The notes below the pieces were generated by a model. That model saw nothing but the letters and a program-made list of their open reading frames with translations, did no database searches and was not told where the DNA came from. DNA of 64,000 nt from a virus. The translations under genes and the position numbers were made by a program. The DNA lies in IMG/VR virus record IMGVR_UViG_3300032294_001558; one strand, given 5' to 3'. Shown here piece by piece: positions 36,831-40,656 of this stretch. Numbering within the stretch: the first letter of the stretch is position 1; each line of letters opens with the position of its first letter.

Positions 36831-37058
36831 CTAGAAATGCGGTGGGGGGCGTGATAGGTAATCACCGCTGCCGTTGCCGTAGCCGTCGCCATAGCCGTTG
36901 CCGTTGCCGTAGCTGTTGCCGTAGTAGCCGGAGCCGTCGCCGTAGCCGTCGCCGCTGCCGTCGCCGTAGCCGTAGCCGTAGCCGTCGCCGTAGCCGTCGC
37001 CGGAGCCACACATCACTGCTCCGGCTGTGTACCACATGAAAAACGATACGTCAGACAA
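36831..37058 (-). CDS. Gly/Tyr/Asp-rich (Gly-X)n repeat protein, paralog 1 (75 aa)
   Basis: TTG start 4 nt after AGGAGG. N-terminal MSDVSFFMWYTAGAVM, then a GYGDGYG core, then a C-terminal ..PPPHF before the stop. Confidence 0.6.
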   Translation of the reverse strand: MSDVSFFMWYTAGAVMCGSGDGYGDGYGYGYGDGSGDGYGDGSGYYGNSYGNGNGYGDGYGNGSGDYLSRPPPHF

Positions 37059-37066
37059 TGCGCCTC

Positions 37067-37447
37067 CTAGAAATGCAATAGGGCATCCGACTCAAAATCG
37101 CCGTCGCCGTAGCCGTAGCCGTCGCCGGAGCCATAGCCGTCGCCGTAGACGTCGGCGTAGCCGTTGCCGCCGCCGTAGACGTCGGCGTAGCCGTTGCCGT
37201 AGCCGTCGCCGTCGCCGTCGCCGTAGCCGTAGCCGTGGCCGTAGCCGTTGCCGTAGCCGTGGCCGTAGCCGTCGCCGTCGCCGTCGCCGTAGCCGTAGCC
37301 GTGGCCGTAGCCGTTGCCGTAGCCGTGGCCGTAGCCGTCGCCGTAGCCGACGCCGTTGCCGTAGCCGGAGCCGGCGCCGTCGCCGTAGCCGGAGCCAAAC
37401 ATCACTGCTCCGGCTGTGTACCACATGAAAAATGATACGTCAGACAA
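37067..37447 (-). CDS. Gly/Tyr/Asp/His-rich (Gly-X)n repeat protein, paralog 2 (126 aa)
   Basis: TTG at 37447 after GGAGGTACA. Same N-terminal box. Tail GDFESDALLHF. Contains a perfect 2x66-bp duplication. The 195-aa ORF-track form is an upstream read-through. Confidence 0.6.
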   Translation of the reverse strand: MSDVSFFMWYTAGAVMFGSGYGDGAGSGYGNGVGYGDGYGHGYGNGYGHGYGYGDGDGDGYGHGYGNGYGHGYGYGDGDGDGYGNGYADVYGGGNGYADVYGDGYGSGDGYGYGDGDFESDALLHF

Positions 37448-37484
37448 TGTACCTCCTAAATCCGCAATATCTCCTGCGGAGTTA

Positions 37485-38693
37485 CTACGCCGGTACATAG
37501 AGAGACACCCCGCAAGGGGCAGTAATACCTTTAGTGCTGATGCACCACAGCACCGGGGCGTTCCATTCGCCCCAGTTTTTGCCCACATAGCCGTCAGTAA
37601 AGTGGATGATGCAGTCGGGCTTAATACCTTTAGCAGCGAGGTAACGAGAGACACTGGTCGGGTCCGTACCGCCGCCGCCCTTGGGCTTAGTCACATCTGC
37701 GATAGACGTAACAGCATCGCCTTCGTATACCTCATGAGCGGCTACTGTCGTGTCCCAGTAAATCACATCGACGATCTCGGGCTTGACCGTCTCGCAGGCA
37801 CTGACGATCTCGGTCATAGCACGCCGGAGTTGTGCTTCGCCGATTGACCCACTAGTGTCGCAGGTAACTACAACGCGCTTCATCGTTTCACTGATCCTGC
37901 TCGGCATGTACGCATCCTGCGCCATCCACCTACGCGACGGTTTGCGCCACGTTGACATATCGCTACCAGCAGCATGCGTGCGGTAAAAATCTTTCAGTTG
38001 ATCGCGCCAGTCAACAGTGACTTCCAACAGGTCTTTGATACTACGATCTACGTTAGCACCCATCTTGCCAGCAGCAATAACGGCTTGCCGGATAGCGGTA
38101 TCAACGGCCTTGGCAACTTCCGTCGCTTCCGACGCGCCCAGCGCTTCGCCTGACTTGCGGCTACTGCCATCCCCAGGTGCGGACTTAGCCGGCCGATGCT
38201 CGTCCATTGGTTGGGCTTTGCCGCCGCTAGCGCTGCGTTGCGCTTTCTGTTGTTGTTGTCGTTGCTGTTTCATCCGGCGATAGACCTCACCCGTATCCAT
38301 CCCTTCGTACTGGTAATCGAGGATGGCGTGCGGCCACACCGTCAGCCAGTTGTCCGCCCCCTTGCCAGCGAGCTTATCGAGTTGAAGGTTGATTACCGCA
38401 TCCGCCGCTATGTTGGCGGTATCAGAGTCTTCGTCCCACAGATGCTTCCAAGTGATCATATGGAGGTAGAGCACGTGATAGTACTCGTGCAGCACAACGA
38501 AACGCAGTGTAGCGTCGTCCAGCGTGTCGATGAATTGACGGCCGACGAGTACATCACGGCCGTTAGTAGCCGCGGTGGGGAGTCCATCCGCAACAATACA
38601 GTCGCCGGTCATCATGATACCCGACAAGGCGATGAACCTTGGTTCGCGCATGATCGCAACTCGCGCCCGTAGAAGTCTGTCTTGCTGGTTCAT
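37485..38693 (-). CDS. VWA-domain protein with an N-terminal HExxH metallopeptidase-like domain (DUF2201/CobT-like)
   Basis: VVLHEYYHVLYLH (HExxH). MIDAS motif VTCDTSGS. 402 aa. Partner of the AAA+ gene. Confidence 0.7.
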   Translation of the reverse strand: MNQQDRLLRARVAIMREPRFIALSGIMMTGDCIVADGLPTAATNGRDVLVGRQFIDTLDDATLRFVVLHEYYHVLYLHMITWKHLWDEDSDTANIAADAVINLQLDKLAGKGADNWLTVWPHAILDYQYEGMDTGEVYRRMKQQRQQQQKAQRSASGGKAQPMDEHRPAKSAPGDGSSRKSGEALGASEATEVAKAVDTAIRQAVIAAGKMGANVDRSIKDLLEVTVDWRDQLKDFYRTHAAGSDMSTWRKPSRRWMAQDAYMPSRISETMKRVVVTCDTSGSIGEAQLRRAMTEIVSACETVKPEIVDVIYWDTTVAAHEVYEGDAVTSIADVTKPKGGGGTDPTSVSRYLAAKGIKPDCIIHFTDGYVGKNWGEWNAPVLWCISTKGITAPCGVSLYVPA

Positions 38694-38702
38694 ATCTCGC
38701 TC

Positions 38703-38996
38703 CTAAAAATGCAGTGGGGCATCCGACTCAAAATCGCCGTAGCCGTGGCCGTAGCTGTCGCCATAACCGTCGCCGTAGCCGTCGCCGAGGCCGTTGCCGT
38801 TGCCGTCGCCGTAGCCGTTGCCGTAGCCGTCGCCATAGCCGTTGCCGTTGCCGTAGCTGTTGCCGTAGTAGCCGGAGCCGTAGCCGTAGCCGCGGCCGTT
38901 GCCGTTGCCGTAGCCGTCGCCGTAGCCGTAGCCGTAGCCGGAGCCAAACATCACTGCTCCGGCTGTGTACCACATGAAAAATGATACGTCAGACAA
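38703..38996 (-). CDS. Gly/Tyr/Asp/Asn-rich (Gly-X)n repeat protein, paralog 3 (97 aa)
   Basis: TAGGAGGCGCA precedes the TTG at 38996. Conserved N-terminal box and GDFESDAPLHF tail. Confidence 0.6.
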   Translation of the reverse strand: MSDVSFFMWYTAGAVMFGSGYGYGYGDGYGNGNGRGYGYGSGYYGNSYGNGNGYGDGYGNGYGDGNGNGLGDGYGDGYGDSYGHGYGDFESDAPLHF

Positions 38997-39004
38997 TGCG
39001 CCTC

Positions 39005-39292
39005 CTAGAAATGCAGTGGGGCATTCGACTCAAAATCACCGTAGCCGTCGCCGTAGCCGAGGCCGTAGCCGTCGCCGCTGCCGTCGCCGTAGCCATAGCC
39101 GAAGCCGAAGCTATAGCCGTAGCCGTAGCCGTAGCCGTAGCTAGCGCCGTTGCCGAGGCTGTAGCCATAGCCTTCGCCATAGCTGTTGCCGTCGCCGTAG
39201 CCGTCGCCGTAGCCGTTTCCGTCGCCGTCGCCAAACATCACTGCTCCGGCTGTGTACCACATGAAAAATGATACGTCAGTAGTAGCGCTCAC
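39005..39292 (-). CDS. Gly/Tyr/Asp-rich (Gly-X)n repeat protein, paralog 4 (95 aa)
   Basis: GTG at 39292 (weak RBS; the internal ATG of FFMWY is an alternative). Tail GDFESNAPLHF, with its TAG inside the SD of paralog 3. Confidence 0.55.
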   Translation of the reverse strand: MSATTDVSFFMWYTAGAVMFGDGDGNGYGDGYGDGNSYGEGYGYSLGNGASYGYGYGYGYSFGFGYGYGDGSGDGYGLGYGDGYGDFESNAPLHF

Positions 39293-39299
39293 GACTTTA

Positions 39300-40358
39300 T
39301 CACTTCATCAGCCAGTGCGAGTCCCGGACCCAGTCAGTAAAGCTAGCGTTCAGAACGGCCCACGTCTTATTACGGGTACGAAGCAGTGATGTAGCAAAGA
39401 CACACTGCACTTCTTTCGGTAGCCGCTTAACGTAAATCATCACGTTGTCTAGCGTGTCTTCTTCTGTACGCATGACGGCGCGAAACACCGTCATCATGAT
39501 AGCGGCCGGGTTGTCTGGCACCGGGGCCTTGTCCGGAGTATTGGCAATCAACGCCCAGGCAGGCAGTTTATCGGCCAACTCAACGAACGCCATCAAGTCA
39601 AACGCAGCGCGGGGGCCAATGTTGCCTGCGATGGCAGCCAGTGTGATGTCGGGGTCGTTGATCGAAGCGCGCCGGTCTTCGCGAAGCTCGATGCTCGCAA
39701 GGTACAGCGAGCGGGGCGAAACAAACGAGCGGCGCTTATCGCGGGGGTGGAACCCATACGGGAAATCCTCGGGCTTATCGTAGTCCTTGAAAGTGCCGAA
39801 CAACTTATCCTGTTCTTCCTTGGCCCAGGCCAACATAGCTTCGTGGACTTGGTTACGCAGGCCCCACTCGACCCACTCGTCGGCAGTCGGATTGCGCATC
39901 TCGATGAACGAGACACGATTGCAGGAATGCGCCTGAAACAGATCGCCCACGCCCTCGGCCCCGAGGTTGGTTGCACCGAAGACGATGCTGCCCGGGGGCA
40001 GCGGCACCGCCCCCACCCTGCGTTCAAGCATCACGGGCAGGAGGGCGTTCTGCACTGGGCGGGAAGCCTTGCCGATCTCGTCTAGGTTAATGACCATTGG
40101 CTTTGTGCCGTCGCCAACCAGCAACACATTCGGCAGGAACTCCACGATCCGCCGCTCTTTGTCCACCGAGGGGATCTGCACATCACCTACGTCCCACTGG
40201 GTGCAGTCCACCGTCACCACGTTATACGTGTTGGGGTCAAACAGCTTGGTGATCGAACTCTTGCCCGAACCCATCGGGCCCTCGATGATGTAGGTTTTGT
40301 CGGCACCATTGGTGCGAATGAGCTTGAAAATCTGATTGATGCTGAGTTGCAGTTTCAT
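39300..40358 (-). CDS. MoxR/CobS-like AAA+ ATPase
   Basis: Walker A GPMGSGKSS. Walker B VINLDEIG. 352 aa. Paired with the VWA gene. Confidence 0.75.
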   Translation of the reverse strand: MKLQLSINQIFKLIRTNGADKTYIIEGPMGSGKSSITKLFDPNTYNVVTVDCTQWDVGDVQIPSVDKERRIVEFLPNVLLVGDGTKPMVINLDEIGKASRPVQNALLPVMLERRVGAVPLPPGSIVFGATNLGAEGVGDLFQAHSCNRVSFIEMRNPTADEWVEWGLRNQVHEAMLAWAKEEQDKLFGTFKDYDKPEDFPYGFHPRDKRRSFVSPRSLYLASIELREDRRASINDPDITLAAIAGNIGPRAAFDLMAFVELADKLPAWALIANTPDKAPVPDNPAAIMMTVFRAVMRTEEDTLDNVMIYVKRLPKEVQCVFATSLLRTRNKTWAVLNASFTDWVRDSHWLMK

Positions 40359-40367
40359 GTTTCTCTC

Positions 40368-40656
40368 CTAGAAATGCGGGGGGGGTATCCGACTCAAAAT
40401 CGCCGTCGCCGTCGCCGTCGCCGTCGCCGTTGCCGTAGCCGTCGCCGTTGCCGTAGCCGTTGCCGTCGCCGTAGCCGTCGCCGCTGCCGAGTCTGCTGCC
40501 GCTGCCGTAGCCATAGCCGTAGCCGTTGCCCCAACCGTCGCCGAGGGTGCTGCCGCAGCCGGAGCCGTAGCCGTAGCTATAGCCGTAGCCGTAGCCGGAG
40601 CCAAACGTCACTGCCCCGGCTGTGTACCACATGAAAAATGATACGTCACTTGACAT
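40368..40656 (-). CDS. Gly/Tyr/Asp-rich repeat protein, paralog 5, frame broken at a G8/C8 tract
   Basis: ATG at 40656 overlaps the upstream stop. As sequenced, the frame reads through to 40237 (139 aa). One base fewer in the run at 40378-40385 would give the family tail DTPPHF and a TAG at 40368-40370. Confidence 0.5.

Follow-up and report, generated by a model that had tools for sequence, protein, structure and literature searches.

In a 64,000-nucleotide stretch of tailed-phage DNA (IMG/VR virus record IMGVR_UViG_3300032294_001558, the whole of which is called the window here), five small genes, GY1 to GY5, encode proteins in which glycine alternates with tyrosine, aspartate and asparagine. 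Directly upstream of GY5 lies o40646, a gene for a small protein with a predicted Sm-like fold of the DUF6948 type. A gene for an Sm-like protein followed by a gene for a (Gly-X)n protein is a conserved and previously undescribed pair of tailed phages, of which the window carries an unusually expanded version. With some reserve, we favour the reading that the GY proteins are the low-complexity half of this two-gene module, locally expanded, and act together with the Sm-like protein. The sequence-only reading of this DNA had described the GY genes accurately and set them in the context of an interleaved MoxR/VWA pair; it missed the partner conserved across phages, o40646, which lies just outside the interval it covered, and the MoxR/VWA context proves secondary.

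A conserved pair of Sm-like and Gly-X genes

When viral loci are picked solely by the repeat (GGCNAC)x8, 85 of the 98 testable ones have a DUF6948- or o40646-like open reading frame (ORF) upstream, counted if it ends within 400 nt and lies on the same strand (99 hidden Markov model hits among 12,588 ORFs). Bacterial genomes with the same repeat, taken as a negative control, show this neighbour in 4 of 92 loci. In the reverse direction, an aromatic Gly-X tract is found within 600 nt downstream at 58 of 62 DUF6948 loci, and a further 18 contigs terminate right after DUF6948. At one locus (L046) the two are fused, in the order Sm-like then Gly-X, and PHROG 18306 weakly matches a GY protein (profile positions 79-136) and matches DUF6948 proteins at 153-236. 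The window has the same arrangement: a Gly-X ORF stands just downstream on the same strand, and its product, like the proteins of Barba, Koroua, NK-7, RcapNL and PMBT5 that form the comparison set, is small, acidic and made of Gly-[Y/D/N/S] between short unique termini.

Among unrelated cultured phages, the pair is carried by Barba of Rheinheimera, Koroua of Pectobacterium, NK-7 of Ralstonia and RcapNL of Rhodobacter. In Koroua (5.6e-31) and NK-7 (4e-30) the gene that precedes the Gly-X gene is DUF6948; its match to this family is weaker in RcapNL and ctOK67, and in two contigs (L282, L283) it bears a precomputed DUF6948 label. For o40646 itself, the proposed link to DUF6948 comes from similarity of the predicted fold and from intermediate sequences. 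Its AlphaFold2 model is confident (predicted local distance difference test, pLDDT, 92.6). The top matches in the PDB are Sm-like proteins (3by7, LSm/Sm chains), at a moderate level (E ~5e-3, TM score 0.5-0.6), and in the BFVD viral library DUF6948 proteins reach TM 0.73-0.84, the best viral matches also including a 104-aa protein of Barba and a 94-aa protein of PMBT5. The last two correspond in length to the genes that immediately precede the GY genes of these phages, and those preceding genes align with o40646, supporting the relationship. The neighbour in RcapNL is an intermediate sequence, 39% identical to o40646 and matching DUF6948 at 1.3e-4.

Several observations weigh against the pairing as a general rule or against the place of o40646 in it. 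Neither o40646 nor its close relatives match Pfam DUF6948 (PF22253) at the gathering threshold, and hhalign gives o40646 against canonical DUF6948 a probability of 18%. Four of the 62 DUF6948 loci have no Gly-X tract, and one contig (L286) carries an o40646-like gene without a GY gene. In the window o40646 adjoins GY5 only, GY1 to GY4 being elsewhere. The viral loci in the pairing counts share kinship and are not phylogenetically independent, and the tie between o40646 and GY, drawn from gene order and fold, is a putative one. Weighing both sides, we hold the partnership of o40646-type and GY genes to be highly probable. A full-text literature search yielded no account of either phage GY proteins or DUF6948.

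Gly-X repeat genes are spread over diverse cultured phages and more than 120 IMG/VR contigs (blastn and pattern scans), mostly in early, replication or recombination modules. In cultured phages they are labelled 'lamprin', 'fibroin heavy chain-like' or hypothetical. Across this wider class, families with a recurrent in-frame head and tail are found, with eight tandem pairs. Among the loci L035-L154 (e.g. L108, L119, L128, L096, L035), lineage-specific head/tail families include MFRPV...RRR, ...LTLD, MKYPK...YPYxxVTR, MMLDN...ENPYTTRLLIPDVDPVL and MEHEDLRSLLDTFN, several of them as tandem pairs. Gly-X is also fused to a ~60-aa 'GAC[IV]DGV' domain and to a ~170-aa C-terminal 'IDGxPTI...FAHGET...WHHRLTGSC' domain. 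The (GGCNAC)x8 repeat is common in bacteria as well (L155-L234: Streptomyces, Burkholderiales and Myxococcota among others), almost never with a DUF6948 neighbour, and the tracts there may belong to other proteins or other reading frames.

Organization of the locus

All five GY ORFs lie on the minus strand, in the order GY5-AAA-GY4-GY3-VWA-GY2-GY1. The operon and its boundaries consist of the following features:

35835-35860: second terminator-like hairpin, closing the operon
36831..37058, minus strand: GY1, 75 aa, TTG start, head with an F-to-C change, tail GDYLSRPPPHF
37067..37447, minus strand: GY2, 126 aa, TTG start, the longest copy, with His in its core
37485..38693, minus strand: VWA protein, Pfam DUF2201_N (2.3e-25) and DUF2201 (7.9e-13)
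38703..38996, minus strand: GY3, 97 aa, TTG start after AGGAGG
39005..39292, minus strand: GY4, 95 aa, GTG start 4 nt past the AAA stop
39300..40358, minus strand: MoxR-like AAA+ ATPase, 352 aa, weak Pfam AAA_5 match, phrog_1297 ATPase (3.6e-45)
40368..40656, minus strand: GY5, ATG start at 40656, intended product 95 aa ending in TPPHF
40646..40909, minus strand: o40646, 87 aa, Sm/LSm-like (DUF6948-type), directly upstream of GY5
40933..40948, minus strand: terminator-like GC hairpin, upstream of o40646
40962..41897, minus strand: DUF3150-like gene, weak Pfam DUF3150 match, 71-77% identical to the copies of relatives
37005-37052, 37394-37441, 38943-38990, 39230-39277 and 40600-40647, minus strand: 48-nt head boxes, each encoding DVSFFMWYTAGAVMFG
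36870-37007, 37100-37396 (the largest), 38736-38945, 39039-39232 and 40402-40602, minus strand: (GGC-NAC)n hexamer arrays

Terminator-like hairpins thus stand at both ends of the GY/MoxR/VWA operon. The DUF3150-like gene is the upstream member of a conserved DUF3150-(o40646)-AAA-VWA module. The VWA protein combines an N-terminal putative metallopeptidase domain (HEYYH motif) with a VWA-like domain bearing a DTSGS metal-ion-dependent adhesion site (MIDAS) motif.

These coordinates confirm the five co-oriented genes and the gene order given by the sequence-only reading, as well as the near-identity it saw in the DNA at each 5' end: exactly five copies of the 48-nt head box GACGTATCATTTTTCATGTGGTACACAGCCGGAGCAGTGATGTTTGGC are present, with 0-2 mismatches, against a chance expectation of none. 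Its observation that the stop codon of an upstream gene is embedded in the next ribosome-binding site (RBS), ahead of a TTG, GTG or ATG start, also agrees with the start codons and with the junction CATTTCTAGGAGG, verified between the chained genes; the stop codon of GY3, for instance, sits inside the RBS of the VWA gene. At the head of the chain, the o40646 stop and the GY5 start overlap by 11 nt (ATGTCAAGTGA). Each of the five cores contains a period-6 array according to Tandem Repeats Finder. The conserved tail GDFESDAPLHF, proposed for the whole family, is shared by GY2, GY3 and GY4; GY1 has GDYLSRPPPHF, a tail type common in relatives, and the intended end of GY5 is TPPHF.

The length of about 94 aa first given for GY5 is nearly recovered after a correction of one base. 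As sequenced, GY5 has a run of C8 at 40378-40385, against C7 in relatives, as an alignment with L014 and L018 shows. Because of this extra C the frame misses the conserved TAG at 40368-40370 and continues to 40237, giving 139 aa and an overlap with the AAA gene, whose start it crosses; with one C removed, GY5 has 95 aa and stops at that TAG. The C8 run may come from a homopolymer error in sequencing or assembly, or be genuine, as a real frameshift, a recent mutation or a slippery site.

The translated reading frame

The cores are written as (GGC-NAC)n, with one degenerate base per hexamer, and five of the six frames are open across them, so that the choice of frame is a genuine question. A functional product other than Gly-X would be either the hexamer repeat itself, at the DNA or RNA level, or an (Ala-Thr)n protein from the same strand or an (Ala-Val)n protein from the opposite one. 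The variable base is synonymous in both of these protein frames, and naive counts of synonymous to nonsynonymous differences between paralogs speak for them and against Gly-X (140:81 for Ala-Thr, 118:80 for Ala-Val, 14:184 for GY). This bias is attributed to the shuffling of units that differ only at position 4 of the hexamer, and we dismissed such counts as a misleading frame test. Stop-to-stop ORF length was also set aside: over 95 viral loci it does not single out GY, and it is confounded by the same hexamer shuffling.

Evidence independent of these counts points clearly to Gly-X. Across the head, every frame but GY runs into stop codons, and three distinct upstream contexts each give an in-frame GY start. 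Fifteen head variants keep W-Y invariant while using three codons in each Ala column, all four for Val, and two synonymous codons each for Asp, Glu, His, Ile and Phe. In a divergent relative (L034) the head codons change from TCA to AGT (Ser-Ser), TTT to TTC and GTG to GTA. A diverged paralog with a non-repetitive core, kept in two contigs (L278 and L281), differs between them by 22 synonymous and 30 nonsynonymous codons, with 30 identical. In diverged relatives the head is under purifying selection at the protein level.

Further afield, low-GC prophage-like loci hold the repeat in frame between non-repeat segments with TAT/GAT/TCT or GGT codons; such arrays abolish the Ala-Thr and Ala-Val readings and leave Gly-X as the only one shared. 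In other loci the repeat forms in-frame fusions with DUF7666 and further domains, and the recurrent in-frame head/tail families argue in the same direction. In 127 of 165 cases the flanking genes share the GGCNAC strand, and the gene calls of the Joint Genome Institute adopt the GY frame. A reading of the repeat other than Gly-X fits poorly with the near absence of a DUF6948 neighbour at bacterial loci with the same DNA repeat; Rfam and promoter scans found no RNA family and no internal promoter inside the arrays. Judged from these sequence patterns, Gly-X is the frame that is evidently translated, in agreement with the earlier description, and we give a non-functional GY frame hardly any credence.

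Turnover of cores and cassettes

Ten metagenome contigs of close relatives (85-95% nucleotide identity) contain arrays of up to seven GY copies. Across 11 contigs 21 unit types occur in shuffled cassette order, and the GY4-type core of the window is found at the last array position in four contigs. Orthologs of GY5 measure 41, 49, 59, 78 and ~95 aa with constant head and tail, and cultured Barba isolates have GY versions of 69, 71 and 79 aa, the frame being intact. The 41-aa ortholog (L034, 626-751) was cut by a TAC-to-TAA change within the repeat, and repeat DNA goes on beyond the stop. Judging by these comparisons, cores lengthen and shorten by hexamer slippage, and cassettes shuffle among relatives. 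Against this weighs the fact that many contigs break inside the arrays, so that copy numbers and orders may include assembly artefacts. In one contig (L020, Ga0068876_10016353, 2201-4723) five consecutive GY genes are followed directly by AAA, without a VWA gene, which reflects either a deletion by recombination between GY cassettes or a misassembly caused by the repeats.

The choice of Gly codon bears the same mark. It is GGC in 633 of 637 core codons of the window, and within each array it is uniform, GGC-only or GGT-only and never GGA or GGG, unlike in the non-repeat part of the gene. Such almost exclusive use of one codon is seen in the window cores and in L022, L023 and L282-L284, and holds even at 25-33% GC, where GGA or GGT is used outside the repeat of the same gene. 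A universal constraint on GGC is ruled out by the GGT-only arrays. The uniform Gly codon of each array is caused by array-wise homogenisation and fits homogenisation driven by slippage.

A small coiled-coil gene (MFDINTAINTAI...) also changes place among relatives (L005 3101-3541; L278 ~3195-3800; L275 ~8590-9300, minus strand). It stands before DUF3150, between DUF3150 and o40646, or between AAA and VWA, with GC-rich hairpins on its flanks that precede a TAGGAG RBS, and its mobile position indicates that shuffling in the operon is not confined to GY cassettes.

Conserved ends around a hypervariable core, in tandem copies and next to a putative metallopeptidase, recall the precursors of ribosomally synthesised and post-translationally modified peptides (RiPPs), with the head as leader, the tail as follower and the neighbouring enzyme as processing peptidase. 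The resemblance is one of architecture only. Pfam and PHROG scans of the window operons revealed no radical-SAM, YcaO, LanM, P450 or similar enzyme, the cores lack Cys, Ser and Thr chemistry, and the repeat is elsewhere fused to globular domains or paired with DUF6948 in phages without a nearby peptidase. We regard a RiPP-like role as very improbable.

Composition and predicted properties of the GY proteins

Nearly all core variation falls on hexamer position 4, as positional entropy shows, and the variety of Tyr, Asp, Asn and His at X stems from this one degenerate base. As shares of core codons, Tyr makes up 23%, Asp 13%, Asn 8% and Ala 1%. The idea that X is restricted to queuosine codons (Tyr, Asp, Asn and His all being NAY) was dropped, Ser, Phe and Gln being frequent X residues elsewhere. 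The proteins contain 10-13% Asp and no Lys, and their net charge ranges from -7 to -17. In the AlphaFold2 model of GY3 (pLDDT 40.6) the sole structured part is a helix at residues 7-13, within the head. The GY proteins are thus predicted to be acidic, intrinsically disordered (Gly-X)n proteins; to be held against this is that low model confidence does not prove disorder. Codon adaptiveness in the GY frame is 0.90-0.97, as opposed to 0.74-0.82 for real genes of the phage, which also favours GY as the translated frame.

The head consensus in the clade is phi-phi-phi-W-Y-x-A-[DEG]-A-[VA]-M-[FH]-G. Being aromatic, hydrophobic and predicted helical, the head could be taken for a signal or anchor of membrane-inserted or secreted peptides (holin-like, bacteriocin-like or matrix proteins). 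No GY protein has a signal peptide or a hydrophobic helix of at least ~19 residues: averaged over 19 residues, hydropathy rises to no more than 0.88, which falls short of a transmembrane helix, and the acidic N-terminus (MSD...) lacks a positive n-region. The heads of relatives are amphipathic and acidic (e.g. WYLAEAQELF), and the genes stand in the replication block rather than in a lysis block. We consider a membrane or export function most improbable.

The family could not be assigned, as the sequence-only reading had already concluded: searches of Pfam, PHROGs, NCBIfam and PDB sequences with the GY proteins returned no curated family, only low-complexity noise (TrAA12, keratin head, ribosomal S10 tails). 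The strict head pattern has zero matches in IMG/VR and in 185k bacterial genomes, and phmmer against 1.84 billion representatives found just two headed proteins.

The charge of the GY proteins raises another explanation, in which they are stand-alone polyanionic decoys, independent of the Sm-like neighbour, that would mimic nucleic acid or the Phe-ending acidic tail of single-stranded DNA-binding protein (SSB) and so titrate host DNA- or RNA-binding proteins, nucleases or defence sensors. Net charges of -7 to -17 without Lys, and a location in early, replication or recombination modules of many phages, are in line with this. Extreme codon optimisation and multiple gene copies suggest a stoichiometric role, and most headed members keep a C-terminal Phe across differing stop/RBS contexts. 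The known DNA mimics have a folded scaffold that the GY proteins lack, one tail type is non-acidic, and the tails in L285 end without Phe. Mimicry of the SSB tip in particular was rejected: the tails end in A-P-L-H-F, R-P-P-P-H-F, A-K-T-F or similar and show neither the acidic run followed by [I/L]-P-F nor a terminal Pro-Phe; the window offers no phage SSB with an acidic tip for comparison. The near-obligate DUF6948 neighbour would also be left unexplained, and we judge the decoy explanation unlikely.

Relation to the MoxR/VWA module

The main alternative to a partnership with the Sm-like protein makes the headed GY proteins clients, substrates or adaptors of the co-transcribed chaperone pair of MoxR AAA+ and VWA-metallopeptidase. 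Head and tail would be docking or cleavage sites, the MIDAS of the VWA protein would bind the Asp-rich core, and the machine would set the assembly state. One proposal casts a phage MoxR-vWA-metallopeptidase pair as a chaperone with its cochaperone, active in assembly and processing (PMC7824862), and the VWA protein of the window has an HExxH peptidase domain and the DTSGS MIDAS motif. Every headed GY gene found is within a DUF3150-o40646-AAA-VWA module, at AAA identities of only 48-82%, and the genes are tightly chained in translation. The expansion between module genes also happened independently: two headed copies flank o40646 in the L084 group, two or three lie inside the module in L278 and L281, and L285 has six, one per gap between module genes, with the variant head WYLAEAQELF. 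This repeated expansion keeps a clade-specific link as a candidate.

A specific tie between GY and MoxR/VWA, as first suggested, did not survive the comparison of genomes. The DUF3150-AAA-VWA synteny persists without GY genes in relatives whose VWA is 36-60% identical (L005-L010; for the client explanation, L005, L006 and L008-L010 count), and L286 and N4-like phages likewise have the module without GY. The Gly-X repeat genes of unrelated phages have no AAA/VWA neighbours, the wider class standing near Erf, SSB, exonuclease and DnaD genes. With the module found without GY and the Gly-X class without the module, GY genes are not specific to MoxR/VWA. Co-occurrence across genomes is confined to one clade: the synteny search proposed earlier finds the interleaving to be recurrent within this phage clade, limited to it, and absent from unrelated Gly-X phages. 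Local duplication in one clade can explain the clustering, and the contig with five GY genes and no VWA gene, if not misassembled, also speaks against a client role, which we regard as a minority possibility.

Other features of the window

Besides terminase and portal genes, the window contains a minus-strand replication block with primase, helicase, exonucleases and polymerase; no close cultured relative of the phage was found. A T-rich stretch followed by TAGGAG (e.g. TTTCTAGGAG), with the upstream stop in the RBS, recurs at 35822-35833, directly after the terminator-like hairpin at 35835-35860, and at 1521-1529, 26850 and 23797. This junction appears to be the standard intergenic translation cassette of the phage. 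Just downstream of the operon, a LuxR/GerE-type helix-turn-helix regulator (Pfam GerE, 6e-9) is encoded at 35269-35739 on the minus strand.

Matches to the phrog_93 endonuclease lie inside the DNA polymerase (residues 449-729) and the helicase (residues 362-414), and the gene call of a relative's terminase carries Intein_splicing. Inteins or homing-endonuclease insertions are likely in three core genes (28078-30855, 23824-26295 and 48910-51537). Other repeats comprise a perfect 27-nt tandem repeat of 4.1 copies (100% identical, 45467-45576) and a (GGGCGGCGG)x8 array (46558-46632), both at or within the ORF 45561-46700 (379 aa, no family match), and a 66-nt tandem repeat of 3.7 copies with 87% matches (63718-63960) near the end of the window.

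A proposed mechanism and its significance

If the GY proteins are the low-complexity half of an Sm-like/Gly-X module, the locus could have arisen as follows. In this clade the repeat partner would have gained a short N-terminal aromatic helix and then multiplied into paralogs. Local duplication and recombination across the ~50-75-nt tail-RBS-head junctions would have spread these paralogs until they filled every intergenic gap of the adjacent DUF3150-MoxR-VWA operon, each copy forming a translational cassette complete in itself and also furnishing the RBS for the gene that follows.

As for their activity, the GY proteins may be detachable, multivalent acidic and aromatic tails of the predicted Sm-like protein, docking through their short terminal motifs. 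They might either compete with nucleic acid for the predicted Sm-like ring or, in the replication phase, favour a condensate or gel that forms by Tyr-driven self-association, and extra copies would supply dosage. The conserved pairing, the one Sm-like/Gly-X fusion and the Gly-rich tails on Sm and Hfq proteins (PMC11617691) suggest this detachable-tail model, which reasons by analogy and which we put forward tentatively.

On a larger scale, DUF6948 and (Gly-X)n could form a widespread, unrecognised two-component system of tailed phages, an idea we still regard as speculative, in which an Sm-like ring would work with a hyper-evolvable, acidic, Tyr-rich disordered protein. Such a system might build or regulate a nucleic-acid-containing condensate in replication or recombination, or act as a tunable mimic of nucleic acid. 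Repeat slippage and cassette duplication would then serve as an adaptive dial, turned to an extreme in the window.

Tyr-rich low-complexity proteins are reportedly rare in prokaryotes and phages, and aromatic residues are heavily under-represented in the low-complexity regions of both (PMC6821194). Here, Tyr-rich low complexity is a recurrent, conserved class of phage genes with a fixed Sm-like partner. With two genes, natural length variants and fusions, it gives a tractable entry to the role of disordered proteins in phage infection. The finding also accounts for the misleading labels 'lamprin', 'fibroin heavy chain-like' and 'adsorption protein', and for the assemblies of these phages breaking at the GY locus. 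It redirects the idea of a MoxR/VWA client towards a partner supported across phages of several bacterial phyla.

Comparison with known systems

MoxR AAA+/VWA systems, including the phage pair proposed as a chaperone (PMC7824862), have the same kind of AAA+/VWA-peptidase pair as the window, where it is co-transcribed with GY. They differ in that the co-occurrence is clade-limited and that the pair without GY and GY without the pair both exist.

Silk fibroin, lamprin and the high-Gly-Tyr keratin-associated proteins share Gly-X alternation or a Gly/Tyr-rich composition with the GY proteins, and there is no homology: these names on phage genes are low-complexity matches. The silk-like character first suspected does not hold, the X residues being bulky or charged instead of Ala or Ser, and the phage proteins are intracellular early or middle products. 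The acidic phage proteins Ocr, ArdA and Gam are DNA mimics. Like them, the GY proteins are small and very acidic, come from early or replication modules and probably act stoichiometrically, and most headed members end in Phe as does the SSB tip. Unlike them, they are predicted to be disordered and not folded, and the acidic run with I/L-P-F of the SSB tip is missing.

The FUS-type [G/S]Y[G/S] domains and the YG domain of PEX13 (PMC9795577) are Gly/Tyr-rich and disordered, with Tyr as the likely sticker. The resemblance to FUS noted in the sequence-only reading stands for low-complexity composition and for GYG motifs and fails for charge: FUS-like domains are near-uncharged and Q/S/N-rich, whereas the phage proteins, with their 10-13% Asp, are strongly negative. 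They are also strictly Gly-X, tiny and unattached to any RNA-binding or membrane domain. The prion-inspired heptapeptides GYGYGYG, NYNYNYN and SYSYSYS assemble into amyloid fibrils on which Tyr ladders are exposed, and they bind Cu, Ni, Co and Zn (PMC8163036, PMC10510724). They follow the same binary X-Tyr pattern as the GY cores, and their assembly and metal binding in vitro make a Tyr-driven association tuned by Asp plausible. These peptides are synthetic, seven residues long and without Asp, whereas the GY cores have GD and GN units in between, which would counteract or tune assembly.

Sm, LSm and Hfq proteins with Gly-rich tails resemble the phage pair in joining a small, in the phages predicted, Sm-like beta-barrel to a Gly-rich, aromatic, disordered segment. 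SmB/D1/D3 carry RG-rich tails, and the acidic C-terminal tip of Hfq competes with RNA. In Acinetobacter baumannii, Hfq has a C-terminal tail with GGFGGQ repeats (PMC11617691). Unlike these, the phage tail is usually a separate gene, strictly Gly-X and rich in Tyr, Asp and Asn, hypervariable and multiplied to 5-7 copies, and DUF6948 is a putative binder of nucleic acid. The likeness extends to the fusion in L046, where the two parts stand in the same order, and to the acidity of the phage segment, which recalls the tip of Hfq.

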